From IMG/VR virus record IMGVR_UViG_3300033068_001467, positions 1 to 64,000 of that record: a DNA stretch of 64,000 nt; one strand, given 5' to 3'. Shown here one piece after another: positions 14,327 through 64,000 of the stretch (positions within the stretch are counted from its first letter, which is position 1; each line of letters begins with the position of its first letter). Below the pieces are notes generated by a model that was not told where the DNA came from, searched no databases, and worked only from the letters and a program-made list of their open reading frames with translations. The stretch comes from a virus (Duplodnaviria > Caudoviricetes). The position numbers and the translations under genes are program-made.

Positions 14327-15045
14327 ATGTCAGAAACAGAAAAAAAACCAATTAACCTAGCAGATTACACTTACGAAAAAGGAACTAAAATTGAAATTAG
14401 TTCAGAATTGTTTGAAGCACTTATGGAAACTCTAACTATTGTAGAGCAACAAGAAACTAAAAACGTTCTTTTAAATACTTTTCCGCAAGCAAAAGCTAAA
14501 GATAAAATTGAATATAAAGACCACGACGCAAAAACGTTTTTCAGCCAAGATGTACAAACAGCCTTAACAGTTGTAGGAGCAAGTTGTTTAGATTTAAAAT
14601 TTAACTTACTTCAAGTTCATCAGGAAAATGTAATTTCAGGAAAAGCTATTAACAAATACGAAGTAAGAGATGAAGTTAAACTTTCATAATGTGTGGCACA
14701 ACCACCTAAAAAAAGAACTTGGAGCATCTTTTGTAGGGTTTGAAACTTATAGAGACAAAATCTCTCTGAAAGTTACGGTGAATAAGAAAACAAGATATGT
14801 AGATTTGAAAGTGGGGTTGGATAGACTTGACCCCACAGTCTACAATAATATTTTAAACGATTTAAAGAATGAGTTATAAAAAATTGTATGAGACCTTGTT
14901 AGAGAACGAAGACTTGTATGTTTTATTTGATGGAATGACAGGTGTTTGGGAACAAGATAAAAAAAGATTTAAAGAAGAACAATTAAAATTAGAGTCGGAC
15001 GCTTTTGACTTAAACATAGAAACAGAAGATGACTACACTGAATAA
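14327..15045 (+). other. Three small hypothetical ORFs (14327-14689, 14670-14879, 14869-15045)
   Basis: ORF track plus manual translation (MSYKKLYETLLENEDLY...); overlapping starts and stops. Confidence 0.6.
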
Positions 15046-16555
15046 CGAACACTTACTTTATGGATTCAATCACGCCTGCAATTCAGCAAAATTAACTTTA
15101 GGAGCTGAAGGTAAATTAGCAGTTTTAGAGAAGCAAATGGGTATGTTAACATACACTAAAGATGGTGTATCAGTTGTAAAATCTATTTTCTTTTATGAAG
15201 ATGTTAATAGTACGGCGGAAGAAAGAGCTATTATAAAGCAAAAACAGGTTGGAGCTAATGCCGCTAAACAAGTGGCTGTAAAAACTTTAACAGAGGCAGG
15301 CGATAACACTACAACAGCCTTAGTTTTAGCACAAGCACTTTTAAATAAAGGTCTTAAAGCAAAAGCATCAACAGTTGAATTAAGAAATGGAATTGAACTT
15401 GCTTTTAAAGATGTTGTTAAAGAATTAAAAAAGTTGTCAAATGTTGTAACCAAAGAAGATTTAGTGAATATTGCAACTATTTCCGCTAACGGAGATAAAG
15501 AAATTGCAAATATGCTTATTAAAGCTTATAGTGAAGTTGGAGATGGTGGAATTGTAGATATTGTAAAGGCAGATTCTCCTACAACAACTTTCAAAAGTAT
15601 TAAAGGTATGAAACTTGAAAAAGGATATATGAGTCCTTTTATGGTTACAAATAACGAGAGTTTAGTTTTCGACGAGCAAGATGTAACTGTGATTGTTTGC
15701 GAAACTCCTTTTGGAACTACTAATATTGCTCCTTTAGAGCAGTTGATTGGGCAGATTAAAACGCCTATTTTAGTTATTGCCGAAGATTTTTCAGAAGATG
15801 TTGTTAACAGTTGTGTTTATACACATTTGAATAAAATCAGAAGTTTATGCTTAGTTAAAACACCTGACTTCGGACAAAACAGAAAAGATTTATTACAAGA
15901 TTTAGCAGTTTATACAGGGGCAGAGGTTTACATTCCAGGAGTTTCAGAAAACTTTGTAGTAGGAACAGCTAAAAAAGTGATAGTATCAAAAGACACTACC
16001 TTTGTAATTCAAGATGAACTTAATGAGGCTTCGCAAAAAAAACTACTTTCATTGAAAGAACAAGAAACAGATGATGAAGAGTTTTTAAAGAAAAGAATTG
16101 CTAACTTTGAGAATGGTGTTTCAACTATCTATGTAGGCGGTATTACAGATGCAGAGAGAGATGAAAAATATGACAGATATGATGATGCTAAATGTGCTAT
16201 TAAATCGGCTTTAGAAGAGGGTTATGTAGCAGGCGGTGGAAGTACATTCTATCATATTTCAAATAAATTAAAAGCACCTAAAAAATTAAAATCAGGAGAA
16301 AAAGTTGGGTATAATGTTTTATTAGATTCTTTAAAAGAACCTTTTCTACAAATTTTAAGAAATGGTGAAGTTAAATGGAATTGGTGGAATAGACTTAATA
16401 ACTATGGAGATTTATATGACATCAAAGAACGTAGAATTACAACAGCAGAGAAATCAGGAATTATTGATTCTACAAAATCTTTGAGGGTGGCTTTGGAAAA
16501 CGCTAAATCCATTTCAAGTTTATTAATTAACACAAAAATTATAACAACTTTATAA
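15029..16555 (+). CDS. groEL: Phage-encoded GroEL-like chaperonin
   Basis: LTLGAEG, TKDGVSV, AGDNTTTA, IATISANGD, KTPDFG, IANF, YVGG, EEGYVAGGG, GIID..KSLRVALENA. Confidence 0.95.
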   Translation: MTTLNNEHLLYGFNHACNSAKLTLGAEGKLAVLEKQMGMLTYTKDGVSVVKSIFFYEDVNSTAEERAIIKQKQVGANAAKQVAVKTLTEAGDNTTTALVLAQALLNKGLKAKASTVELRNGIELAFKDVVKELKKLSNVVTKEDLVNIATISANGDKEIANMLIKAYSEVGDGGIVDIVKADSPTTTFKSIKGMKLEKGYMSPFMVTNNESLVFDEQDVTVIVCETPFGTTNIAPLEQLIGQIKTPILVIAEDFSEDVVNSCVYTHLNKIRSLCLVKTPDFGQNRKDLLQDLAVYTGAEVYIPGVSENFVVGTAKKVIVSKDTTFVIQDELNEASQKKLLSLKEQETDDEEFLKKRIANFENGVSTIYVGGITDAERDEKYDRYDDAKCAIKSALEEGYVAGGGSTFYHISNKLKAPKKLKSGEKVGYNVLLDSLKEPFLQILRNGEVKWNWWNRLNNYGDLYDIKERRITTAEKSGIIDSTKSLRVALENAKSISSLLINTKIITTL

Positions 16556-16560
16556 AAATA

Positions 16561-16716
16561 TTTGTGCATTTAAAATAAAAGTTGTATCTTTGCATTATAA
16601 CAATGGTTTACATCAATAGCGGTGATAGTAAATTTTTGTAATCGGCAGTAAAAGATAAAACAACAGTAAAAAAATTAATAATTAGGCTTACTTAATCCGC
16701 TACTAATGTAAGCCTT
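16561..16716 (+). promoter_or_regulatory. Promoter plus leader tag (TAGCGG) and hairpin whose loop carries CCGCTA
   Basis: TTTG 16561 / TATCTTTG 16585-16592; stem AGGCTTAC/GTAAGCCT. Confidence 0.55.
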
Positions 16717-16828
16717 AACGTTAGTAGCAAGCTTAGCTTAAAATTGACGATTAGAAAAAACTAAACATAAATGAACTTTGAATGTTGTAATAAGGATAGA
16801 ATAGAGTGTTCTAAGTGGTCAAAAAAAC

Positions 16829-17257
16829 CTACTGACAAATCTCTTTTTTTTCAGTTGAAGCAGAACTTTTATCAGTTGTTGAATAGATTGAAAATAAAAT
16901 AGATAGAATTGCCAAAAACATAGAAATGAAAGCAATCAAGATATTTCTTTTTGAATTTTCATAATCTATAAGTTTAAGACAAGCATCTCCTTTCATAATA
17001 AAATTACAAGTTAAATGATTTTCAAAATCATCAAAACTTACAAGCTTTTTATCTGAACCTTTATGATGAAAATTATCATAAAACCACTGCTTAATCGCTA
17101 ACTCAATACAATCACAACTAAAATCATAATTTTTCTTTATTAATTCTTCTTTTAATGTGTTGTAAGACAAGCCATCTTTAGCCGTCTTTCTTCCAATTTT
17201 AAGAACATCAATATATAAATTATCGTAGTTAGGATTATCACTTTTAAAAATAGACAT
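16829..17257 (-). CDS. Hypothetical protein with C-terminal TM helix; accessory gene against the local gene direction
   Basis: ORF track; hydrophobic ILIAFISMFLAILSILFSIY; inside the groEL-groES insertion. Confidence 0.65.
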   Translation of the reverse strand: MSIFKSDNPNYDNLYIDVLKIGRKTAKDGLSYNTLKEELIKKNYDFSCDCIELAIKQWFYDNFHHKGSDKKLVSFDDFENHLTCNFIMKGDACLKLIDYENSKRNILIAFISMFLAILSILFSIYSTTDKSSASTEKKEICQ

Positions 17258-17393
17258 AAATAAAAAATTAAAAAAATGGAAACAGTTGAAAAAAAAACAG
17301 AGGAAATTTTAAAAATCCTAAAAGGTTTAACTTTAAGACAGTATAAACAAATCATCAGACTTTTGGAAGATAAAGTTACAGATACATATAAGA

Positions 17394-17564
17394 TTATTTA
17401 GAAGTATTAGTATCAATATATCCCAACTTAGTCACAACTTCATCTAATTTATCACAAACATTATCTGCACCATAATCAGATGCTAGTTTTGCGGACATAT
17501 CAGAGAGTTTAGTACTTATTTCTTGTAATAAGTCAATCATAGTTTGTGCTTGGTCTTCTGTCAT
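17394..17564 (-). CDS. Small hypothetical protein
   Basis: MTEDQAQTMIDLLQEISTKLSDMS...; ATG at 17564. Confidence 0.55.
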   Translation of the reverse strand: MTEDQAQTMIDLLQEISTKLSDMSAKLASDYGADNVCDKLDEVVTKLGYIDTNTSK

Positions 17565-17638
17565 AATAAAATTATTTAAAGTGAAAACCAAATATAATAA
17601 AAATTTTGTAAGTTAGCCACAAACAAAATATAAACGCA

Positions 17639-17932
17639 ATGAAAAGAGGATTTGGAGTTTTCTTTATAATAATTGGAATATTAAATCTTATAATCGGTTT
17701 TCTAGGTTTAGCAACAGAATATAAATCAGAAGCATTTTCTAAAATTATTTTTGGTTTAGTTGTTTTACCACTTGGAATTTGGATGTATGAATCTTCAAAA
17801 CCAAAAGAAGTTGAAAAAAATTATGAATACAAGTCTTATAAACTTAAAAAGCTAAAGAAAAAACACAAAAAGGAAAAGAGAAGACTTAAAGTAAAAATCG
17901 AAAGTGAGTTTCCTATAAAAAAGAAAAAATAA
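17639..17932 (+). CDS. Small membrane protein; cassette-like gene
   Basis: Two TM segments and a Lys-rich tail; preceded by GTTAGCC (17612-17618) and followed by GCTAAC plus an attC-like repeat. Confidence 0.7.
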   Translation: MKRGFGVFFIIIGILNLIIGFLGLATEYKSEAFSKIIFGLVVLPLGIWMYESSKPKEVEKNYEYKSYKLKKLKKKHKKEKRRLKVKIESEFPIKKKK

Positions 17933-17940
17933 AGCCGATT

Positions 17941-18071
17941 TGCTAACAGCGGTTTTGCAATAGTGTGGCTTTAGTAATATTTGTAAAATTTCGGGCGAAA
18001 ATAAAAATTAATAATAATCGGCTATCTTTGGTGCTTATTTGCCCACACCATTGCAAAGCCACAAAACGTTA
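17941..18071 (+). repeat. attC-like recombination site (TAACA...ACGTT orientation)
   Basis: GCTAAC-A-GCGGTTTTGCAATAGTGTGG ... CCACACCATTGCAAAGCCAC-AAAAC-GTT; long imperfect inverted arms bounded by AAC and GTT. Confidence 0.75.
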
Positions 18072-18073
18072 AA

Positions 18074-18322
18074 ATGAAACCAATATTTAAACAAACAGAA
18101 GTTGTAGTTTTAGAACCTGAAAAATTAGGAGGAGTAGATTTAGGTTCTTCAGCTAAAGAAATTAAAGCAGTAGTCAAGTACATAGGAAATGAAACTAAAC
18201 TCTATACTGTGGGCGAAACAGTATTCTTTGATGAAGAAAGGTCTAAGAAAAAAACAATAGAGGGAGAGAAATTAATGATTATTGACGAAAGATACGTCAT
18301 TTGCGAACTAAAAGAGGTGTAA
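18074..18322 (+). CDS. GroES-like co-chaperonin
   Basis: 82 aa; mobile-loop-like KLGGVDLG, AVVKYIG...TVGETVFF...EGEKLMIIDERYVI; first resident gene after groEL once the insert is removed. Confidence 0.7.
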   Translation: MKPIFKQTEVVVLEPEKLGGVDLGSSAKEIKAVVKYIGNETKLYTVGETVFFDEERSKKKTIEGEKLMIIDERYVICELKEV

Positions 18323-40880: not shown

Positions 40881-41016
40881 TAACGTTTTGCGGCTATACG
40901 AGGTTGTTGCCGAATTAAAAACAGACCTCATAAACATAAACTAAATTTTAAAATTATGACTGAACTTTCAAAAAATGCCGAATTGCAACAATCTTGTATA
41001 ACCGCTGTTATAAGCC
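40881..41016 (-). repeat. attC-like site (TAACGT...TGTTA on +, i.e. inverted relative to the gene)
   Basis: TAAC-GTTTT-GCGGCTATACGAGGTTGTTGC ... GCAACAATCTTGTATAACCGC-T-GTTATAAGCC; arms match at 18 of 21. Confidence 0.8.
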
Positions 41017-41240
41017 GTTTTTCTAACACAATTGAATTATGGTTAAAAAGCGATATTAACGGAAATTGGATAAGGAACGAAAAAAACACAAATACGTTTA
41101 CCGACATTAAAGGCGGTAGAGCTTTGTATGTTTATGAAGACTGCATTAAGTATTGGGATGATATTAGACAACATTCTGGAGTTTGTGAATATATGATTCC
41201 AACTTCAAAAATAGAGTTGTTTGATATACTCGGTGGTTAA
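40956..41240 (+). CDS. Cassette gene, hypothetical protein
   Basis: Starts inside the attC loop; bracketed by GTTATAAGCC (41007-41016) and GGCTTATAAC (41244-41253). Confidence 0.7.
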   Translation: MTELSKNAELQQSCITAVISRFSNTIELWLKSDINGNWIRNEKNTNTFTDIKGGRALYVYEDCIKYWDDIRQHSGVCEYMIPTSKIELFDILGG

Positions 41241-41243
41241 AAT

Positions 41244-41305
41244 GGCTTATAACTCCTATATATAAACAACCAATATAAACACTAATAAAATCAATACTAT
41301 AAGCC
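41244..41305. promoter_or_regulatory. Candidate attI-like site abutting the integrase start
   Basis: GGCTTATAAC ... TATAAGCC-ATG short inverted repeat, with no long attC arms. Confidence 0.4.
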
Positions 41306-42136
41306 ATGAACATTCGAAAATACATAGACGACTATTCGAGAGATATAGAATTAGTTTATAACTCTAAAGCAACAAAAAATAATTATAAAAGCCAAATATG
41401 GTGTTTTTTAAATCACTTTAAAAATGAAGTTGAACCAAAATCAATAACAAATGCTAAAATAAAAGACTGGTTATTAGAGGCTAAAACTATAAACACAAGA
41501 AAACATAGACTTTGTGCTTTGAATTCTTTTTATAAAATTACAATTGGTATGCCTTCTAAAATTCAGAAAATACCTTATCCTAAATCTGAAAAGAAATTAC
41601 CAATAGTACTAAGTCAAGAGGAGGTTCAAAAAATGTTTGATGTGTGCGAAAATACTAAACATAAGGTTATTTTAGCTTTACTTTATTCTACTGGAATGCG
41701 AGTTTCGGAATTGATTAATTTGAAGTGGGAACATTTTGATAGGTCAAGAGGAATTATAAACATAATTGGTGGTAAAGGAAATAAGGATAGACAAGTAATG
41801 TTGTCTAATGATTTATATCCATTACTAGAAAAATATTGGAAAGAGTATAGGTCTTTTCCTTATGTTTTGAAAGGTCGGTTTTCGGAGCATTATTCGGATA
41901 GAAGTGTTGGTCAAGTGATGAAACAATTAGCAAAAAAAGCAGGAATAAGTAAAAGAGTTTACACTCATTTGATGCGTCATAATTGTTTTACACATTTAGT
42001 AGAAAATGGTATTGATATTAATTTAATACAAAAACTAGCAGGTCATTCAAACGTTAAAACAACTTTGGTTTACACACATATATCACACAACTTAATAAGT
42101 AAAATAAGGTCACCTTTAAATTTAATAAAATTATGA
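41306..42136 (+). CDS. Tyrosine recombinase (XerD / integron-integrase-like)
   Basis: KKLPIVLSQEEV, LYSTGMRVSEL, GKGNKDR, HLMRH, LAGHSNVKTTLVY; full R-K-H-R-H-Y catalytic set. It lacks the IntI-specific insertion. Confidence 0.92.
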   Translation: MNIRKYIDDYSRDIELVYNSKATKNNYKSQIWCFLNHFKNEVEPKSITNAKIKDWLLEAKTINTRKHRLCALNSFYKITIGMPSKIQKIPYPKSEKKLPIVLSQEEVQKMFDVCENTKHKVILALLYSTGMRVSELINLKWEHFDRSRGIINIIGGKGNKDRQVMLSNDLYPLLEKYWKEYRSFPYVLKGRFSEHYSDRSVGQVMKQLAKKAGISKRVYTHLMRHNCFTHLVENGIDINLIQKLAGHSNVKTTLVYTHISHNLISKIRSPLNLIKL

Positions 42137-57360: not shown

Positions 57361-59469
57361 ATGGAAAATACAGAAATATCGGTTTTAGATAATAAAATGT
57401 TTGTCACTTATGATATAGAAACTTTCTTGAGTATTTTCTGTGTTGTTTTTAAACATGCTGATAAATATAAAGTATTTGAAATAAGTGAAAGAATTGACCA
57501 ATATGACGAACTTGTGGAATTTATAAAATTGGGTTCTTCACAAGGCTGGTTTTTTGTGGGGTTTAATAATGTTCGATTTGATGCTCAGGTTTTACAATGG
57601 CTGTTAGATGCTAAAGAATCATTTAAAAAACTAACAGGGAAAACAAAAGCAAAACATATAATGGAGTTTGCACAATCTGTTATTGAAAAAATTAATAGAA
57701 AGGAATTTCCACCATATCAAGAATCTAAATTAACTTTCCAACAGTTAGATTTATATTTACAATCACATTACAATAATCGTGCAAGGTCTTGTAGCCTAAA
57801 ATGGTTGGAATACTCAATGAATTGGAACAAAATCCAAGATTTACCATATAAATTTGATGAAGTTTTAAGTTCAGATAAATTTGATGATGTAATCAAATAT
57901 TGTATTAATGATGTAGACGCTACAGAACAATTTTTCAAAAAATCTAAAAAACTTGTAGAATTGAGATTTGCTCAACAGGCTGAAAATATGCATTTGGAAT
58001 TATTCAATAAATCTGATAGTAGTATTGGAGAAGCTTTATTTTTAGATTTGATGTCAGAAAAATTACAAGTAGAAAAAAAGTACTTGAAAAAAATGCAAAC
58101 TCGTAGAGAAAGTATTGAATTAAAAGATGTTATTCTTCCTTATATTAAATTTGAAACTCCCGAATTCAATTCTGTTTTAGAATTTTTCAAGCAACAGATT
58201 ATTACAGAAGCTACAAAAGATGCTTTTAAACATTTAATGGTGTTTGATGGTATGGAATATTTCTATGGTTTAGGTGGTTTACACGCCGCACGAGATAATT
58301 CCATCTTCAAATCAGACGAAGAAAATATAGTTTTATCAGTGGATTTTGCAAGTTTTTATCCAAATATCTCAATTAGAAATAGACTTTACCCTGAACATTT
58401 ATCAGAATCTTTCTGTATATTGTATGAGGAATTATTTGAAAAACGTAAATTAATTCCTAAATCAAACCCTCAAAATACAGCAATCAAACTTCTACTTAAT
58501 AGTAGTTTTGGTAAGGCGGGGGATGAATATAGTTTTCTTTATGATAAATTATTTCAAATGGCTATTACAGTTAATGGTCAATTAATTCTTTCCATGCTTT
58601 GTGAACAACTTTCTCAAATCGAAGGTGTGAGGATGGTTATGGTAAATACGGACGGAGCGGAACTAATTGTACCAAAAGTCAAAAAAAGAGAAGTGTATAA
58701 TGTTTGTTTAGATATAGAAAAATTAACACAGTTGCAATTAGAATATTCAGTTTATGATAAATTATTTACTCGCGACATCAATAATTATTTGGGAATTGAT
58801 ATTAATGGTAAAGTAAAAACAAAGGGATGTTTCGATATTGATTTAGAATTACATAAAAACCGTTCAGAAAGAATTGTTCCTCTTGCTATAAAAAGATATT
58901 TTGTAAATGACGTTCCTGTAGACGATACAATCAAAAATCATTTGAAAGTTGGTAATTATGGTAAAATTGAGAATCAAGGAATTTATGATTTCTGTATAGG
59001 TAAAAAAATACAAAGTAATCAAAATTATACTATTGAGGATGATGGGGGAAATATATTAAAGAATATTGATGACAAAGTTATTCGTTTTTATGTTTCTACC
59101 GATGGAAATAATCTAAGAAAAAATTATAATGATGGTCGAAAGGAAATTACAGTTGGGGGAAATAAAATAACTATGTTTATGGATTATTATAAATCTGAGG
59201 ATTACAAAGTAGATTATGATTATTACATAAACCAAGCAAATAAAATTATCCATGCTGTTGATGGTACAACTGAAAGATTAGAAGCTCAAAGAAAGGCTGA
59301 AATAGCCCGTTTAAAGCAAGAAAAAGAAGAGAATGACTATATTACTTATTGCTTAAATAAAACACCTACAACACTACAATTTGCTAAATATGGAAAACCT
59401 TATATTGTAGCTAAATTAGGTGAACCAAAAGAAATAAAACCATCGAAAATTAAGTTACACACAGATTAA
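57361..59469 (+). CDS. Family B DNA polymerase
   Basis: ExoI YDIETF, ExoII GFNNVRFD, ExoIII YCINDV, motif A SVDFASFYP, motif B KLLLNSSFGK, motif C VNTDG; no intein or intron seen. Confidence 0.95.
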   Translation: MENTEISVLDNKMFVTYDIETFLSIFCVVFKHADKYKVFEISERIDQYDELVEFIKLGSSQGWFFVGFNNVRFDAQVLQWLLDAKESFKKLTGKTKAKHIMEFAQSVIEKINRKEFPPYQESKLTFQQLDLYLQSHYNNRARSCSLKWLEYSMNWNKIQDLPYKFDEVLSSDKFDDVIKYCINDVDATEQFFKKSKKLVELRFAQQAENMHLELFNKSDSSIGEALFLDLMSEKLQVEKKYLKKMQTRRESIELKDVILPYIKFETPEFNSVLEFFKQQIITEATKDAFKHLMVFDGMEYFYGLGGLHAARDNSIFKSDEENIVLSVDFASFYPNISIRNRLYPEHLSESFCILYEELFEKRKLIPKSNPQNTAIKLLLNSSFGKAGDEYSFLYDKLFQMAITVNGQLILSMLCEQLSQIEGVRMVMVNTDGAELIVPKVKKREVYNVCLDIEKLTQLQLEYSVYDKLFTRDINNYLGIDINGKVKTKGCFDIDLELHKNRSERIVPLAIKRYFVNDVPVDDTIKNHLKVGNYGKIENQGIYDFCIGKKIQSNQNYTIEDDGGNILKNIDDKVIRFYVSTDGNNLRKNYNDGRKEITVGGNKITMFMDYYKSEDYKVDYDYYINQANKIIHAVDGTTERLEAQRKAEIARLKQEKEENDYITYCLNKTPTTLQFAKYGKPYIVAKLGEPKEIKPSKIKLHTD

Positions 59470-59503: not shown

Positions 59504-59617
59504 TACACTTTAATTTATCGTGCAGGGTATTTTGAAAACTAATTTAAATAAAAAAGACATATAATATAGAGATGCCAATCTGATTCCTCTGCACAGGATG
59601 ATGATTGGTTTTCTCAT
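59504..59617 (+). promoter_or_regulatory. Promoter plus leader tag GTGCAG and hairpin loop CTGCAC upstream of the GIY-YIG gene
   Basis: TATATTTA, then GTGCAGG; hairpin CCAATC/GATTGG with inner TCCT-CTGCAC-AGGA. Confidence 0.5.
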
Positions 59618-59634
59618 TTTTACAAGTCGAAGCT

Positions 59635-60429
59635 ATGAAAGAAGTAAAAAGTGGTATTTATGGAATTAAAAATTTAATAAATGACAAAATATACATAGGT
59701 AAGTCAAAAAATATCTTTAAAAGATGGGCAGTACATAAGTCCGAATTAAAAAGATGTGTAAAAAAGAAAGATACAAACAGGTTTTTATGGAATGCTGTTA
59801 AAAAGTATGGACTTGAAAAATTTGAGTTTATTATAATAGAAGAATTACCTATTGATGAGGAATTATTTAAAATAAGAGAACTGTATTGGATGGATTATTT
59901 TGACAGTTGTAATAGAGATTTTGGATACAATTTAAGAAGAGATTCTAAAACAAATATGATAGTACATGAAGATACAAAAAAATTATTAAAAGAGTTAGTG
60001 AAGGGTAGTGGTAATCCTAATTTTGGTAATACTTGGTCTGATGAACAGAAAAAATATATGTCAGAGCTTAAAAAAGAAGGGTATAAGAATGGAACACTAC
60101 TTGTTAATAAAGAGGCTCTTAAAAAGGGCAGAGAAGAAACACAAAAAAGATATGAGGAAAATCCACAATTGAAAATTAATATGCGAAAAAAAGTTTCTGA
60201 AAATCATAACTTATATCAATATTTAAAAATAGATAGAGTAAGTGGAGAAATATTAGAGACATTTGAAAATAGATTAGAACTTTTAGAAAAATATCCTGAG
60301 TATAAAACAAGCCCTCTATTATCTGTTTGTAATGGTTGGAAATCTTCCTATAAAGGGTTTATTTGGAGATATAGGATTAGAGAGACAAATCAAATAATTG
60401 AGCCTGAATGTAAGTATTGTAAAAAGTAA
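59635..60429 (+). CDS. GIY-YIG homing endonuclease (free-standing, next to the polymerase gene)
   Basis: SGIYGIKN....KIYIGKS.NI..RW..H...RE.YW...GYN; NPNFG; C-terminal NUMOD1-like region; ATG at 59635. Confidence 0.9.
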   Translation: MKEVKSGIYGIKNLINDKIYIGKSKNIFKRWAVHKSELKRCVKKKDTNRFLWNAVKKYGLEKFEFIIIEELPIDEELFKIRELYWMDYFDSCNRDFGYNLRRDSKTNMIVHEDTKKLLKELVKGSGNPNFGNTWSDEQKKYMSELKKEGYKNGTLLVNKEALKKGREETQKRYEENPQLKINMRKKVSENHNLYQYLKIDRVSGEILETFENRLELLEKYPEYKTSPLLSVCNGWKSSYKGFIWRYRIRETNQIIEPECKYCKK

Positions 60430-60639: not shown

Positions 60640-61752
60640 ATGTTACCAAAAAATTCAAAGATTATTTTTAGAGGTATTGTAGGAAGTCAGTCTTATGGCT
60701 TGGCTACTGAAACTTCAGATACAGATTATAAAACTATTTACATTCAATCTAATGAGGATATTTTATCTAATAATTATATTGCTCAAATTGATATAAATAA
60801 GGATGACGTGGCGTACGAGTTACGCAGATTCTTAGAGCTTGTTTCAACAGGAAACCCTAACGTACTTGAACTTTTATTTTTGCCCGAAAAATGTATTTTA
60901 GAATCTTCTGCGGAATATGAATATTTAAGAGCCAATAGAGATATGTTTTTAACCAAAACCTGTTACTACACTTATTCAGGATATGCTAAAACACAACTTG
61001 GAAAAGCGAGAGGGATTAATAAAAAATTCAGGTGGGAAGAAAGTAAAACTGTTAGACAAAATGTTTTAGATTTTTGTAAAATTATTGACAGGCAAAGTGG
61101 TAAAAGCTCAACTTTAAAAGATTGGTTAAAATTAAATGAATATACTCAAGAACAATGCGGGTTAGCACAAGTTGAGGGTTTTAGAGATTGTTACAGACTT
61201 TACACTGATGATATTAAGTGGGTTAGAGATAATCAAGCTAATCATAGATTTGGAGATATTGAGTTTGAGACTCGTAATTATAAAGGTATAGCTGATGAAA
61301 ATTCAAATGAACCTAGAAAATCAGAGATTGAAAAGTATAGAATTGATGAGTGGAAAGGTTTAATATATTGGAATAGAGAAAGTTACAGCACACATTGTAA
61401 GGAATATCGAGAATATGAGAATTGGTTAAAAAACAGAAATGAAAATAGAGTTGCTACAAATAAAGCACATGGACAACAGTTTGATTCAAAAAATCTTTTA
61501 CACTTAGTTCGTTTAATTATGACAGCTCAAGAGATACCTTTAGAAAAAACAATTAATGTTGATAGAACTCCTAATAGAGAATACTTACTTTCTGTAAAAA
61601 GAGGGGAAGTTGATTTAAATTCTATTGTAGAAGAGTGGGGTAAAAAAGCAGAAGAATTAGAGCAATTATATTTGGACAGTGATTTACCTGAAAAAGTAGA
61701 TATTGAAGTAACAAAACAATTAGAACTTAAAATTAGAAAAAATGAATTATAA
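60640..61752 (+). CDS. Predicted nucleotidyltransferase (PF10127 / RlaP-like)
   Basis: GIVGSQSYGLATETSDTD, YELRRFLEL...GNPNVLELLF, YSGYA..QL, KNLLHLVRL, LLSVKRG. Confidence 0.85.
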   Translation: MLPKNSKIIFRGIVGSQSYGLATETSDTDYKTIYIQSNEDILSNNYIAQIDINKDDVAYELRRFLELVSTGNPNVLELLFLPEKCILESSAEYEYLRANRDMFLTKTCYYTYSGYAKTQLGKARGINKKFRWEESKTVRQNVLDFCKIIDRQSGKSSTLKDWLKLNEYTQEQCGLAQVEGFRDCYRLYTDDIKWVRDNQANHRFGDIEFETRNYKGIADENSNEPRKSEIEKYRIDEWKGLIYWNRESYSTHCKEYREYENWLKNRNENRVATNKAHGQQFDSKNLLHLVRLIMTAQEIPLEKTINVDRTPNREYLLSVKRGEVDLNSIVEEWGKKAEELEQLYLDSDLPEKVDIEVTKQLELKIRKNEL

Positions 61753-62484: not shown

Positions 62485-62538
62485 TAACGTTAAGGTGCTT
62501 TGCGCTCGTTTTAATGGCGCAAAACACGTGTTACCTGC
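62485..62538 (-). repeat. Short attC-like site
   Basis: TAAC-GTTAAG-GTGCTTTGCGC-N11-GCGCAAAACAC-GT-GTTACCTGC. Confidence 0.8.
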
Positions 62539-62596
62539 TGGTGCGGTTAATTAACGAGAAATTTAAATTGAAATACTAAACAAAAAAATATTAAAA

Positions 62597-63478
62597 ATGA
62601 GCGTAGGCAAAAAAGAAAAAATTAACGTATTATCACTATTTGATGGTATGAGTTGTGGACAAATAGCTTTAAATAAAGTAGGAATTGAGTATGAAAATTA
62701 CTTTGCTTCTGAAATAGAACAAGCACCTATAAAAGTTACGCAACATAATTACCCTAATACTATACAATTAGGTAGTGTTATTGATGTAAAAGGAGTTGAT
62801 TTACCAAAAATAGATTTAATGTTTGGTGGAAGTCCTTGCCAATCATTTTCAAACGCTGGTAAAGGAGAAGGATTTGATGGAAAAAGTGGGTTGTTTTGGG
62901 AATATGTAAGAATATTGAAAGAGGTAAATCCAACTTACTTTTTACTTGAAAATGTAAAGATGAAGAAAGAATGGAAAGATATTATTTCTAAAGAATTAGG
63001 TGTTGAGCCTATCGAAATAAATAGTTCTTTACTATCTGCTCAAAATAGACCAAGATTATATTGGACAAATATTCCAAATGTTGATATTCCAAAAGATAAA
63101 GGGCTTTTATTTAAAGATGTATTAAATAGTGATTATGAATTTAAACCTTTAACAAAATGGTTTTTTTCTAAATGGGGAGATAAACAAAAAATTGATACTT
63201 TAAAAACAATTGAAGCTGAAAAATCATTTTGTTTAACAACAAATAAAAGCCATTCAAAAAACTATTACTTAACACCTGATAAAACTATGGCTCGTATGCT
63301 TGAAAGAGATGAAGTAGAAAGATTGCAAACTATCCCTAACGGATATACAAATATTGTTTCAAAAACAGATGCACATAAAATGATTGGGAATGGATGGACG
63401 GTAGATGTAATTGCTCATATTTTTTCTTCTTTAAAGGAGGGGGAAATTTTTAATAATTTTTCTAACGAAAATGTTTAA
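62597..63478 (+). CDS. DNA cytosine-5 methyltransferase carried as a gene cassette
   Basis: VLSLFDGMSCG, GGSPCQ, LLENV, QNRPRLYW, IGNGW; bracketed by GTTACCTGC (62530-62538) and GCAGGTAAC (63501-63509). Confidence 0.92.
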   Translation: MSVGKKEKINVLSLFDGMSCGQIALNKVGIEYENYFASEIEQAPIKVTQHNYPNTIQLGSVIDVKGVDLPKIDLMFGGSPCQSFSNAGKGEGFDGKSGLFWEYVRILKEVNPTYFLLENVKMKKEWKDIISKELGVEPIEINSSLLSAQNRPRLYWTNIPNVDIPKDKGLLFKDVLNSDYEFKPLTKWFFSKWGDKQKIDTLKTIEAEKSFCLTTNKSHSKNYYLTPDKTMARMLERDEVERLQTIPNGYTNIVSKTDAHKMIGNGWTVDVIAHIFSSLKEGEIFNNFSNENV

Positions 63479-63500
63479 TAGAAGAGCGAATGAAGCACTT

Positions 63501-63638
63501 GCAGGTAACGTTTCGCAACTTGTGTTAGTTGCGTAAATTAAAAAACAAACTTAACAAAAATTAATTAACATTAAATTTAAAACAATGGAAACAAATAAAA
63601 CACATACTGAGCAATTGACACAAGATGCTGTTATGCAA
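63501..63638 (-). repeat. attC-like site
   Basis: GCAGGTAAC-GTTTC-GCAACTTGTGTTAGTTGC ... GCAATTGACACAAGATGC-T-GTTATGCAA; arms match at 15 of 18. Confidence 0.8.
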
Positions 63639-63995
63639 TCGGTTTTAAAAGCATCTGATTTGAGAGTTGGAAATCTTTTAAACTTATTAGGAGAAATAGT
63701 AAAAGTAGAATGTATTTCTAATGTATTTAAAAGAAAAGATATGTATTGGATTAGCACAGAAGGGTTATTGCCAATGAAAATATTTCATTTTAAACCAATA
63801 CTGCTAACTGAAGAATGGTTAAACAAATTAGGCTACGATTTAATTTCTGAAAATCATTTTGGAGTTTTAGGACATTTGATTTGGAAAATTGAGGGAAGAT
63901 TTTATTGCGATAAAAACGGAGTACAATTAAAATACGTTCATCAACTTCAAAACTTATATTTCGCTTTAACGCAACGTGAGTTAACTGTTGCATAA
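63585..63995 (+). CDS. Cassette gene, conserved Bacteroidota-phage-type protein (LRVGN...LTEEWL...VHQLQNLYF)
   Basis: Starts in the attC loop; its stop TAA is the TAA of the core TTGCATAAC (63988-63996), complementary to GTTATGCAA. Confidence 0.8.
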   Translation: METNKTHTEQLTQDAVMQSVLKASDLRVGNLLNLLGEIVKVECISNVFKRKDMYWISTEGLLPMKIFHFKPILLTEEWLNKLGYDLISENHFGVLGHLIWKIEGRFYCDKNGVQLKYVHQLQNLYFALTQRELTVA

Positions 63996-64000
63996 CGTTC
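63988..64000 (-). repeat. Start of a further attC-like site (array continues past the window)
   Basis: TTGCATAACGTTC has the same TAACGTT junction as the other sites. Confidence 0.65.

Follow-up and report, generated by a model that had tools for sequence, protein, structure and literature searches.

Integrons are built of tandem, promoter-poor, single-gene cassettes of about 0.5–1 kb, joined at structure-conserved attC sites (imperfect palindromes of 57–141 bp) that carry an R″ box (RYYYAAC), an R′ box (GTTRRRY), and L boxes. The start of each cassette is complementary to its far-end box, as a circular intermediate predicts, and a hairpin-less primary site adjoins the recombinase gene, intI, which is positioned upstream of the cassettes and in divergent orientation. 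Arrays of two or more sites with no nearby integrase are termed CALIN. Xer-type systems provide a second point of comparison. In CTX phage, host XerC/XerD integrate the whole genome into dif via a folded single-stranded attP hairpin of about 100–150 nt, a structure resembling a core site with two arms and an unpaired middle; these Xer enzymes are without the I2 helix of IntI. In Acinetobacter plasmids, the accessory genes of pdif modules are flanked by inversely oriented XerC/XerD sites, which are double-stranded, conserved, and 28 bp long. T4-type phages have PeSLs, mobile stem-loops with a conserved promoter that lie beside small accessory genes in a hyperplastic region; they have been associated with modular shuffling, thought to occur via homologous recombination, and we know of no dedicated recombinase, partner site, or cassette-end complementarity described for them. 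The folded-DNA recombination of integrons, the textbook example of structure-specific recombination, has been credited to one protein innovation, the IntI I2 helix, a region regarded as permitting single-strand recombination (PMC7790495). Qi et al. 2023 (PMC9892861) identified attC sites in virulent phages, including P12002L with its methylase cassettes, and found that predicted sites, one of them from P12002L, are able to recombine through the bacterial IntI1. In addition, a 2024 preprint described anti-phage defence cassettes in bacterial chromosomal integrons, which phage arrays would mirror.

Here we analyzed a window of 64,000 nucleotides (the whole stretch of DNA examined) from the 87.8-kb genome of a phage of Bacteroidota type (IMG/VR record IMGVR_UViG_3300033068_001467). 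The final 1.5 kb of the window was found to be the beginning of a four-gene array, which is capped by a recombinase gene just beyond the window. We interpret the array as a phage-borne gene-capture system that acts like an integron via its adjacent Xer-like recombinase, and give this reading a probability of roughly 0.8. No description of such a phage cassette-recombinase system was found in a literature search.

Anatomy of the arrays and their recombinases

Copies of the heptamer TAACGTT were located on the + strand at 62485-62491, 63506-63512, and 63993-63999, the three positions given by the first-pass annotation. Past the window, a fourth TAACGTT junction was seen at genome position 64501, followed by a TAAC on its own at 64916. 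The junctions displayed a common layout of TAAC|G, a spacer, an imperfect stem of about 20 bp whose two sides are separated by an A-rich loop, and TGTTA. The array genes are small, each is flanked by one of these hairpin-forming TAAC…GTTA sites, and the bases that follow GTTA are complementary, across the gene, to the bases that precede the next TAAC, like those of integron cassettes. The features of this array, with those from 63993-64120 onward given in genome coordinates, are:

62485..62544, + strand: site 1 (short type), leftmost junction of the array; TAAC|GTTAAG, 11-nt loop, GTTA at 62530
within 62485..62544, + strand: site 1 stem, 11-bp imperfect, GTGCTTTGCGC / GCGCAAAACAC
62530-62544, + strand: box X opening cassette 1, GTTACCTGCTGGTGC
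62597..63478, + strand: C5 cytosine DNA methyltransferase, cargo of cassette 1; 293 aa; PF00145, E-value 9.5e-40
63495..63509, + strand: box X′ of cassette 1, GCACTTGCAGGTAAC; 13/15 complementary to box X at 62530-62544; terminates at the crossover core TAAC|G
63506..63638, + strand: site 2 (long type), TAAC-to-GTTA span of 128 nt; TAAC|GTTTC, A-rich loop, TGTTA
within 63506..63638, + strand: site 2 stem, GCAACTTGTGTTAGTTGC / GCAATTGACACAAGATGC, and box X of cassette 2, GTTATGCAA
63585..63995, + strand: cargo ORF of cassette 2, no assigned function; 136 aa; phrog_10066, E-value 5.6e-17, aligned from residue 21
63988..64000, + strand: box X′ of cassette 2, TTGCATAAC, and opening bases of site 3
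63993-64120, + strand: site 3, beyond the window
64206-64490, + strand: third array ORF, beyond the window
64490-64504, + strand: box X′ after the third ORF, beyond the window
64501-64625, + strand: site 4, beyond the window
64667-64906, + strand: fourth array ORF, beyond the window
64907-64919, + strand: box X′ with the terminal TAAC, beyond the window
64916-64970, + strand: attI-like segment before recombinase 2
64971-65804, + strand: recombinase 2, Xer-like tyrosine recombinase; 277 aa; starts 971 bp past the window end

The ends of cassette 1, GTTACCTGC (62530-62538) and GCAGGTAAC (63501-63509), were complementary at 9 of 9 positions, as were those of cassette 2, GTTATGCAA (63630-63638) and TTGCATAAC (63988-63996). 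Both pairs had been proposed from the initial inspection; the first extends to 13/15 (GTTACCTGCtgGTGC / GCACttGCAGGTAAC). The repeat spans of 54 and 138 bp and the assignment of a C5 DNA methyltransferase to cassette 1 likewise proved correct. At the nucleotide level the methylase had 67–75% matches in phages of Flavobacterium, Cellulophaga, Synechococcus, and Pelagibacter. The stop codon of the cassette 2 ORF is the TAA of the following TAAC core, and an alternative start is possible at the ATG at 63633, within GTTATGCAA. Pfam and PHROGs provided no function for cassettes 2–4 or for the 94-aa cassette ORF at 40956, and no family in Rfam matched the sites. The DNA fold of site 1 was calculated at −8.9 (+ strand) and −9.7 (− strand) kcal/mol; in the minimum-energy folds, the arms of site 2 were not joined (z −0.6) and the long stem of site 3 at 63993 was not formed (z −0.35). 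TAACGTT alone was not enriched in the window (16 copies against an expectation of 10.2; 12 of 100 shuffles had at least as many); significance rests on the linked features, and the heptamer count was not used as evidence. A 15-nt inverted-repeat scan starting from GTTA/TAAC mainly picked up AT-rich pairs expected by chance and was replaced by a hairpin scan, for which the score alone gave about 2 hits of ≥23 per simulated genome of equal composition. The extended core was present in all top-scoring TAAC…GTTA hairpins of the 87.8-kb genome.

The first-pass annotation had anticipated further units downstream, and these were found in the form of the site at 64501-64625 and the terminal TAAC at 64916. 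Its suggestion that the array is a CALIN on which the 41.3-kb recombinase acts in trans did not hold, as the array has its own recombinase gene (64971-65804) behind an attI-like segment, with a gap of 51 bp between the local array end and the gene. The 41.3-kb recombinase is a paralogue (50% identity) next to a separate cassette that belongs to it. The features of this second array, and of two sites of the same family in reverse orientation, are:

40881..41010, + strand: site of the one-cassette array; 130 nt; 21-bp stem, 18/21 matched; the genome's best hairpin
40956-41240, + strand: cassette ORF (cassette 40956..41253); 94 aa; no Pfam or PHROG match
41239-41253, + strand: box X′ of the 41-kb cassette, AAAATGGCTTATAAC; 14/15 complementary to GTTATAAGCCGTTTT at 41007
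41250..41305, + strand: attI-like segment; hairpin-less terminal TAAC, then TCCTATATATAAACAACC...AATAAAATCAATACT; recombinase ATG 52 bp after TAAC
41306..42136, + strand: recombinase 1, Xer-like tyrosine recombinase; 276 aa; PF00589, E-value 6.3e-39; 50% identical to recombinase 2
16598..16723, − strand: reverse site; core AACGTTA at 16717-16723; score 32; flanks the minus-strand ORF 16829-17257
17944..18071, − strand: second reverse site; core at 18065-18071; score 34

The DNA fold of the 40881 site was −17.1 kcal/mol (z −3.6), which none of 200 shuffles equalled. The attI-like segment at 41250..41305 could be aligned with the segments preceding recombinase 2 and its homologues. In total, five co-oriented sites were detected upstream of the two recombinase genes, with all genes bracketed by complementary boxes. 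The two reverse sites bracket an insert between the Cpn60 gene and the ORF at 18074.

The recombinases were further examined by comparison with profiles and solved structures. The catalytic residues R133, K157, H222, R225, H248, and Y257 were invariant across 31 homologues. The best structural matches were an XerC-like archaeal recombinase (4a8e), IntI4 (2a3v), XerD, and XerA. The alignment to 4a8e was colinear. With the NCBIfam IntI models the match was split in two, leaving some 60 profile positions without a counterpart, and phmmer aligned query residues 38-172 with 35-175 and 202-274 with 247-319 of the VchIntIA chain. The IntI-specific I2 alpha-helix region is missing, with 29 query residues opposite 71 in VchIntIA (2a3v). 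Both recombinases scored under every curated NCBIfam Xer and IntI cut-off, including: (i) TIGR02249 (IntI), 153.5 and 168.9 bits vs 265; (ii) PRK15417 (IntI), 93.5 and 118.8 bits vs 435; (iii) XerA_Arch, 200.7 and 193.5 bits vs 220; (iv) XerD, 182.6 and 172 bits vs 329.6; and (v) XerC, 178.3 and 166.7 bits vs 335. The term Xer-like is used here as a description and not as a statement of membership, the Xer families being nearest by score.

Sites and cassettes among related loci

Relatives of the recombinase in IMG/VR were not found by a single-sequence search and required a profile of the 31 homologues, with which more than 500 contigs were identified; in the phage isolate collection, no recombinase homologue above about 37% identity was detected. 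For comparative statistics, 80 IMG/VR loci were selected solely by recombinase homology. Co-oriented sites in these loci numbered 131 in 357 kb upstream of the recombinase vs 3 in 550 kb downstream, a density 67-fold higher upstream, and at least one site was present in 35 of the 54 loci having more than 1.5 kb of upstream sequence. MAG contigs, mostly labelled Bacteroidota, displayed the same upstream pattern. Among 47 distinct loci, the attI-like motif, TAAC with a TATATGTA-like sequence, preceded the ATG by 49–53 bp in 28 and by 67 bp in another 4; the 49–53 bp spacing from TAAC/motif to ATG persisted in homologues down to about 40% identity. As a search pattern, TAACGNNNATATATGTAAAA was too strict and retrieved 3 viral contigs only.

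The cassettes ranged from 170 to 1900 bp (median 589 bp) and usually carried one gene. The ORF was co-oriented with the site ahead of it in 109 of 114 cassettes, the longest ORF started inside the site in 40 of 108, and the loops contain or just precede gene starts. When the 5 nt after GTTA were compared with the 5 nt before the next TAAC, all five positions were complementary in 74 of 102 cassettes, vs 1.5% of non-cognate pairs; when both flanks of a single site were compared in place, 2 of 163 were complementary. Complementarity at 5/5 was seen in all four local cassettes. This pairing occurs within a cassette and not with its neighbours in the array, and thus fits a circular intermediate.

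Sequence alignment of 71 sites revealed compensatory changes at all 8 variable stem pairs, which substantiates the attC-like conservation of structure over sequence that had been surmised from the junction repeats. Cells altered on both stem sides numbered 205 vs 65 ± 7 in shuffles (0/500), and the covariation score was 0.50 vs 0.07–0.11 with the partners slid. Of 152 sites, 144 had both arms united in the minimum-energy DNA fold (median z −3.65). The site set for these statistics was chosen by an arm-complementarity score, which makes the paired percentages partly circular. Independent support is provided by position, orientation, end complementarity, and a natural indel described below. The sense strand gave the more stable fold at 126 sites, as against 23 for its complement (p 9e-20). 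Every site had fixed C:A and fixed G:T positions, including a C:A mismatch at stem position 5; since both types are fixed, the mismatches alone leave the strand unsettled, and it is the energy comparison that favours sense. The anatomy, the stem covariation, the cassette-end complementarity, and the association and orientation of the sites with respect to the recombinase are directly supported by these data.

Natural gain and loss of cassettes at the core, and turnover of whole arrays, were also directly observed. The Flavobacterium phages filifjonk9-1 and mumin6-1 were found to differ by a 1,581-bp, three-cassette indel with flanks 99.98% and 100% identical and both breakpoints within a shared TAACGTT, in keeping with the tandem array of mobile cassettes that the first-pass annotation had described. 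Its further proposal, that methylases and accessory genes are swapped as modules, agrees with the content of the arrays, which is wholly different in the closest relatives. In six contigs with a 72–88% nucleotide-identical recombinase gene, homology to the present genome was confined to that gene; the onset of homology was ≤7 bp from the terminal TAAC in five of the six, and the upstream arrays were unrelated. A homologue of cassette 2 (82% at the nucleotide level) was identified as gp012 of Flavobacterium phages filifjonk9-1 and mumin, where it has different neighbours and the homology stops at TAACGTT; in filifjonk9-1, this homologue has retained site 2 and the two boxes. In the uncultured phage LR745206 (634 kb), a homologous methylase is preceded by a homologous site with compensatory stem changes. 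The Muminvirus phages and LR745206 carry arrays but no PF00589 gene in the whole record, and Polaribacter phage P12002L has a single weak site of the present type and no tyrosine recombinase. Arrays in recombinase-free phages imply that the enzyme acts in trans or that a host enzyme works there.

Comparison with described systems, proposed mechanism, and alternatives

The phage arrays share with integrons (i) tandem promoter-poor single-gene cassettes of about 0.5–1 kb; (ii) structure-conserved junction sites of 45–130 nt with outer …AAC / GTT… boxes; (iii) a cassette start complementary to the far-end box; (iv) a hairpin-less primary site adjoining the recombinase gene; and (v) a recombinase of the Xer/IntI branch of tyrosine recombinases. 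They differ in that the recombinase is without the IntI insertion (153–169 bits vs 265 for TIGR02249) and its gene is downstream and co-oriented, whereas intI is upstream and divergent. The phage site precedes its gene and the coding strand folds better, while in integron cassettes the gene precedes attC; the attI-like site lies between the last cassette and the recombinase, and attI of the canonical layout between intI and the array. The core is TAAC|G…TGTTA with fixed mismatches instead of RYYYAAC…GTTRRRY with extrahelical bases. Compared with attC, AAC/GTT are kept and the inner stems covary, but the R/Y positions are not kept (e.g., AGGTAAC and GTTACCT) and the irregularities are C:A and G:T. 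The carriers are Bacteroidota phages with counter-defence cargo. We regard the system as a new form of the integron principle, one that works like an integron and is not one. The CALIN definition, which the local array falls outside of, fits the Muminvirus and LR745206 arrays. The phages of Qi et al. (PMC9892861) are alike in their attC-like clusters around methyltransferase genes, the lack of an integron integrase, hosts that include Flavobacteriia, and a proposed benefit of escape from restriction; they differ in that bacterial attC models were used and no phage recombinase or attI-like partner was described. Accessory-gene modules bounded by Xer-type recombinase sites in varied contexts are common to pdif and the phage arrays, though the phage sites are direct repeats with a variable hairpin of 45–130 nt and a 5-bp invariant core. 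PeSLs are similar as repeated intergenic stem-loops that bound small phage accessory genes. CTX is different in that here single-gene cassettes are carried in tandem arrays in a phage genome that encodes the enzyme.

A cassette unit begins with G and a spacer of 4–5 nt, continues through the two stem halves with the A-rich loop between them to TGTTA and box X, and closes, after the gene, with box X′ and its terminal TAAC. In the mechanism that we propose, X′-TAAC of a circular cassette would pair with GTTA-X to form one long imperfect hairpin; its two duplex arms would flank an asymmetric spacer that stays unpaired, and the whole would resemble a folded tyrosine recombinase core site. The adjacent Xer-like recombinase may then cut at or beside TAAC|G. 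Strand exchange with another site would result in excision or shuffling of cassettes, and exchange with the hairpin-less attI-like site about 51 bp before the recombinase's own start codon would result in insertion; owing to the location of this attI-like site, new cassettes would enter immediately upstream of the recombinase gene. The substrate is likely a folded single strand, presumably the sense strand, which folds better, and replication would resolve the Holliday junction, as it does for integrons and CTX phage. Because the recombinase is without I2, a folded-strand mechanism is not a given. The CTX precedent renders the proposed chemistry feasible for a Xer-type enzyme of this kind. With odds slightly better than even, we further suggest that a separate integron-like lineage is widespread in Bacteroidota phages, at least some of them virulent, in which a compact Xer-like enzyme without I2 recombines coding-strand hairpins and builds and reshuffles counter-defence arrays, and that this lineage may be convergent with integrons or similar to their ancestor.

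An alternative is that the sites are genuine but the catalyst is host XerC/XerD or a bacterial integron integrase, with the phage recombinases performing other work (genome multimer resolution or integration) and merely residing in a variable region. Host XerCD acts on the folded CTX single strand, and the sites of Muminvirus, P12002L, and the 634-kb phage occur with no PF00589 gene in the record. Predicted phage attC sites are also substrates of the bacterial IntI1 (PMC9892861). We nonetheless consider this explanation unlikely, given that the 131 upstream vs 3 downstream sites are co-oriented with the phage recombinase, the terminal TAAC and attI-like motif keep their 49–53 bp distance to its ATG down to about 40% identity, homology among relatives begins at the terminal TAAC, and each of the two paralogues in this genome has its own array.

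The sense-strand folding preference is also compatible with a role at the RNA level, and the hairpins could be mainly transcript-level elements (processing sites, terminators, or PeSL-like promoters), with shuffling as a by-product of general or microhomology recombination. The better fold of the sense strand in 126 of 152 sites, the many mismatches that are G:T in the sense orientation and hence G:U in RNA, the loops that hold or just precede gene starts (40 of the 108 longest ORFs starting inside the site), and the arrays in phages without any tyrosine recombinase would all agree with this possibility. Set against these are the indel breakpoints, which lie inside a core of 7 bp, less than ordinary homologous recombination would need, the 67-fold site density upstream of one recombinase family, always co-oriented, the hairpin-less partner site at a fixed distance from the recombinase gene, the mutual pairing of the cassette ends expected of a circular intermediate, and the lack of an Rfam match. 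On balance, a mainly transcript-level role appears decidedly unlikely.

Elements of the IS200/IS605 type have subterminal hairpins and insert beside a fixed tetranucleotide such as TTAC, and an IS605-type tnpA/tnpB pair is present at about 77 kb in this genome. Mobilisation of the cassettes as non-autonomous elements by the Y1 transposase TnpA (genome 77217-77591) was rejected as very improbable, for five further records that carry arrays, one of them a 76-kb genome of 100% completeness with 10 sites, contain no Y1_Tnp, the units have one hairpin apiece instead of one at either end, and the arrays abut tyrosine recombinase genes. Finally, chance or an AT-rich artefact, to which the window-wide frequency of TAACGTT and the hits in simulated genomes might point, has next to no probability and is excluded by the comparative data, given the linked features and the recurrence of the pattern in hundreds of independent contigs.

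Cargo and significance of the cassettes

If the capture of cassettes by the adjacent recombinase is correct, a second widespread cassette system would exist with a plain Xer-like enzyme, another site grammar, and a reversed layout, and it would provide a direct test of whether single-strand site recognition evolved twice or predates IntI. It would also account for the rapid exchange of methyltransferases and counter-defence genes among Bacteroidota phages. Together, site and recombinase are a candidate tool for sequence-independent recombination, and experiments are feasible with cultured pairs, namely Flavobacterium sp. LMO6 and LMO9 with the filifjonk and mumin phages.

The cargo was composed mostly of DNA methyltransferases (five families), DNA-modification enzymes, and small proteins without known function. 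Among 103 genes, family matches included at least 22 DNA methyltransferases, 3 PAPS_reduct, 2 TAGT, and 1 Tad3, the last a match to a Thoeris inhibitor. The cassettes probably serve as a swappable counter-defence kit, and the arrays flag hundreds of small uncharacterised genes as candidate anti-defence factors. In the Muminvirus isolates, methyltransferase content has already been tied to plating efficiency on alternative hosts (PMC7077304), and the differences between these isolates now map to cassette junctions.

Array layout and recombinase genes

The three + strand TAACGTT heptamers that the first-pass annotation read as junctions of a tandem cassette array were confirmed at 62485, 63506, and 63993. 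Also confirmed were (i) the C5 DNA methyltransferase of cassette 1, ORF 62597-63478 (PF00145, E 9.5e-40); (ii) the 9/9 complementarity of the boxes at the ends of this cassette, GTTACCTGC (62530) and GCAGGTAAC (63501), which extends to 13/15; and (iii) the 9/9 complementarity of the cassette 2 boxes, GTTATGCAA (63630) and TTGCATAAC (63988). The heptamer is not enriched in the window (16 seen versus 10.2 expected); the argument therefore rests on linked features. The window covers positions 1 to 64,000 of a viral record of 87,793 bases that is 61% complete (CheckV), and the further units predicted downstream were found beyond the window end.

Features of the array past cassette 2 and of related loci (genome coordinates)
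63993-64120, site 3
64206-64490, 94-aa ORF flanked by boxes GTTATAGTtAgTGGC and GCCAtTgACTATAAC
64501-64625, site 4, opened by a fourth TAACGTT
64667-64906, 79-aa ORF flanked by boxes GTTAGCaGTAgCC and GGtTACgGCTAAC
64916, terminal TAAC without hairpin
64971-65804, recombinase 2, a 277-aa tyrosine recombinase starting 51 bases past the terminal TAAC
40881, 130-nt site before recombinase 1 (gene at 41306)
between 40881 and 41306, cassette with one 94-aa ORF and boxes 14/15 complementary
16598-16723 and 17944-18071, reverse-oriented sites from the genome scan for TAAC...GTTA hairpins

This downstream continuation, the end complementarity, and an indel at the core in related phages support the tandem cassette reading. 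In place of the proposed CALIN dependent on the enzyme at 41.3 kb, the array forms a complete unit that has a recombinase gene of its own. From these sequence features we rate the array as a putative new variant of the integron principle. The same layout of site, one cassette, hairpin-less TAAC, and similar spacer precedes recombinase 1, which is 50% identical to recombinase 2 at the protein level; these are the only two PF00589 genes in the whole record. The reverse-oriented pair flanks about 1.2 kb of inserted sequence, with a Cpn60-type chaperonin gene (15029-16555) on one side and ORF 18074-18322 on the other. Two ORFs lie in this insert, one on the minus strand (16829-17257) and a small one on the plus strand (17639-17932), and its end complementarity is imperfect; as no recombinase lies near, the units at 16598-18071 may be cassettes that entered a secondary site.

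Site structure and cassette ends

All copies share one grammar: the TAAC/G core, a spacer of about 5 nt, a stem of about 20 bp, an A-rich loop, the second stem half, about 1 nt, and GTTA. The stem arms vary between copies, each still matching its own partner, while a C:A mismatch at stem position 5 and G:T pairs near positions 11-14 are constant and a single additional base is frequent in the 5′ arm. Precisely these copies head the genome-wide hairpin scan; simulated sequence yields about two hits per genome, and the hairpin score is therefore a detector, not proof. Covariation was examined in 71 aligned long-type sites, for which paired percentages are inflated by construction because arm complementarity was used to pick the sites. 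RNAalifold recovered an outer TAACG/TGTTA helix and an inner helix with compensatory changes at 8/8 pairs, 205 cells were changed on both sides versus 65 ± 7 in shuffles (0/500), and the covariation score was 0.50 versus 0.07-0.11 with slid partners. With DNA energy parameters, the arms paired in 144/152 sites (median z -3.65), the more stable strand being the sense strand in 126 and the other in 23. Three of the five local sites folded as expected; those at 63506 and 63993 favor small local hairpins.

End complementarity, which played no part in site selection, was perfect between the 5 bases after GTTA and the 5 before the next TAAC in 74 of 102 distinct cassettes, compared with 1.5% of non-cognate combinations and 2/163 for the two flanks of a single site in place. 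A circular intermediate with crossover at TAAC/G predicts this complementarity.

Association with the recombinase and exchange at the core

Homologues of the recombinase number in the thousands in metagenomes. A profile of 31 homologues retrieved 514 relatives in IMG/VR, and in the best 80 of these loci co-oriented sites numbered 131 in 357 kb upstream of the recombinase versus 3 in 550 kb downstream, with at least one site in 35 of the 54 loci whose upstream sequence exceeds 1.5 kb. The same upstream pattern was seen in metagenome and MAG contigs, labeled mostly Bacteroidota. The attI-like segment, in which a TATATGTA-like motif comes after a TAAC that lacks a hairpin, preceded the ATG by 49-53 bp in 28 of 47 distinct loci and by 67 bp in 4 more, most others having obvious variants. 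In contigs whose recombinase gene is 72-88% nucleotide-identical, homology to this genome is confined to that gene and begins no more than 7 bp from the terminal TAAC in 5/6; their upstream arrays are unrelated, in agreement with the predicted variation of array content among relatives.

Flavobacterium phages belonging to Muminvirus carry a homologue of cassette 2 (82% at the nucleotide level) that keeps both boxes and the core, with homology stopping at TAACGTT. The methyltransferase-rich region (8.5 kb) of these 38-kb phages carries 13 sites in filifjonk9-1 and 10 in mumin6-1, with 99.98% identity over their first 6,245 bases and 100% past a 1,581-bp indel. This indel corresponds to three cassettes, has both breakpoints within a shared TAACGTT, and is the trace expected when a site-specific reaction excises or inserts DNA at the core. 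The published account of these phages ties methyltransferase content to plating efficiency and does not mention repeats or cassettes (PMC7077304). The filifjonk9-1 site before the cassette 2 homologue (3975-4110 of L003, a stretch of that phage; upstream of gp012) resembles a chimera, with a 5′ arm, GTGGCTTTAATACAGTTGCGG, that matches the one of the same-array site at L003 position 1653 and a 3′ arm that matches the site in the window; exchange within the sites, besides that at the core, may therefore take place.

LR745206.1, a 634-kb uncultured phage, also carries the C5 methyltransferase cassette and its short site of 45 nt, with nucleotide identity of about 75% (7993-9060 of L116, a stretch of that record), and the array there has three or more sites. 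The stem of this copy, TTTGCGC/GCGCAAA, differs by compensatory changes from CTATACGC/GCGTATAG in the window site, the cassette terminates in TAAC then T without a hairpin, and no tyrosine recombinase gene is present in the whole record.

Catalysis by a host enzyme is possible for arrays in those phages that have no tyrosine recombinase, and less likely in this genome. Mobilization of cassettes by an IS605-type element is improbable: a tnpA/tnpB pair lies at 77 kb, yet five other array-bearing records, including one complete genome with ten sites, have no Y1 transposase. That element (77217-78807; 3217-4807 of L002, a further stretch of the genome) lies beyond the window and comprises a minus-strand Y1 transposase (tnpA, 123 aa, PF01797, E 2e-38) and a divergent 369-aa tnpB/Cas12f-like gene (OrfB_IS605, TNB domain, HTH). 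Action of the hairpins at the RNA level, although consistent with the greater stability of the sense strand and with loops containing gene starts, is at odds with the core-exact indel, the complementary cassette ends, or the association of sites with the recombinase. A chance pattern is excluded.

Enzyme identity and cargo

The nearest solved structures to the recombinase are 4a8e (XerC-like, archaeal), VchIntIA (2a3v), XerD, and XerA. It falls below all NCBIfam curated cut-offs (XerA 201 versus 220, XerD 183 versus 330, IntI 154 versus 265), and has 29 residues where VchIntIA has 71; the IntI-specific region is therefore absent. The enzyme would thus operate in an integron-like setting, but it is not an integron integrase. 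Its catalytic residues are invariant in the 31 homologues. In CTX phage, host XerCD works on a folded strand, a precedent for a plain Xer-type enzyme acting on a hairpin. In IntI, the I2 helix is held to be the step opening single-strand recombination (PMC7790495). CALINs have been described in virulent phages, including a Polaribacter phage with methylase cassettes, and bacterial IntI1 was able to use phage CALIN sites (Qi et al. 2023; PMC9892861); a phage recombinase and attI-like partner were not described there. No description of the present cassette system was found in the literature searched.

Across the 114 cassettes, the median is 589 bp for the unit and 126 aa for its ORF, which runs in the same direction as the site in 109. 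The core supplies the TAA stop codon in 21/108 cassettes, and the longest ORF starts within the site in 40/108. For the 136-aa ORF of cassette 2, the phrog_10066 alignment begins only at residue 21 (63585-63638 region) and an in-frame ATG at 63633 lies within box GTTATGCAA; the true start may thus be this ATG in the box, not in the site loop. Among 103 distinct cargo proteins, Pfam identified 22 DNA methyltransferases (N6_N4 14, C5 3, Dam 2, D12 2, MT-A70 1), three PAPS_reduct, two TET-associated glycosyltransferases (TAGT), two DUF4326, and one Thoeris inhibitor Tad3, the remainder being mostly without a Pfam match.

Just upstream of the array, the GIY-YIG and NUMOD3 homing-endonuclease-like gene at 59605-60429 adds another, unrelated type of mobile gene; its neighbors are ORF 57361-59469 (weak, sub-threshold PolB match) and an RlaP-type nucleotidyltransferase (60640-61752). 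The C-terminal third of ORF 11984-12934 matches the dATP/dGTP diphosphohydrolase N-terminal domain (PF18909, E 1.9e-15), which hints at nucleotide pool manipulation or modified DNA in the phage.
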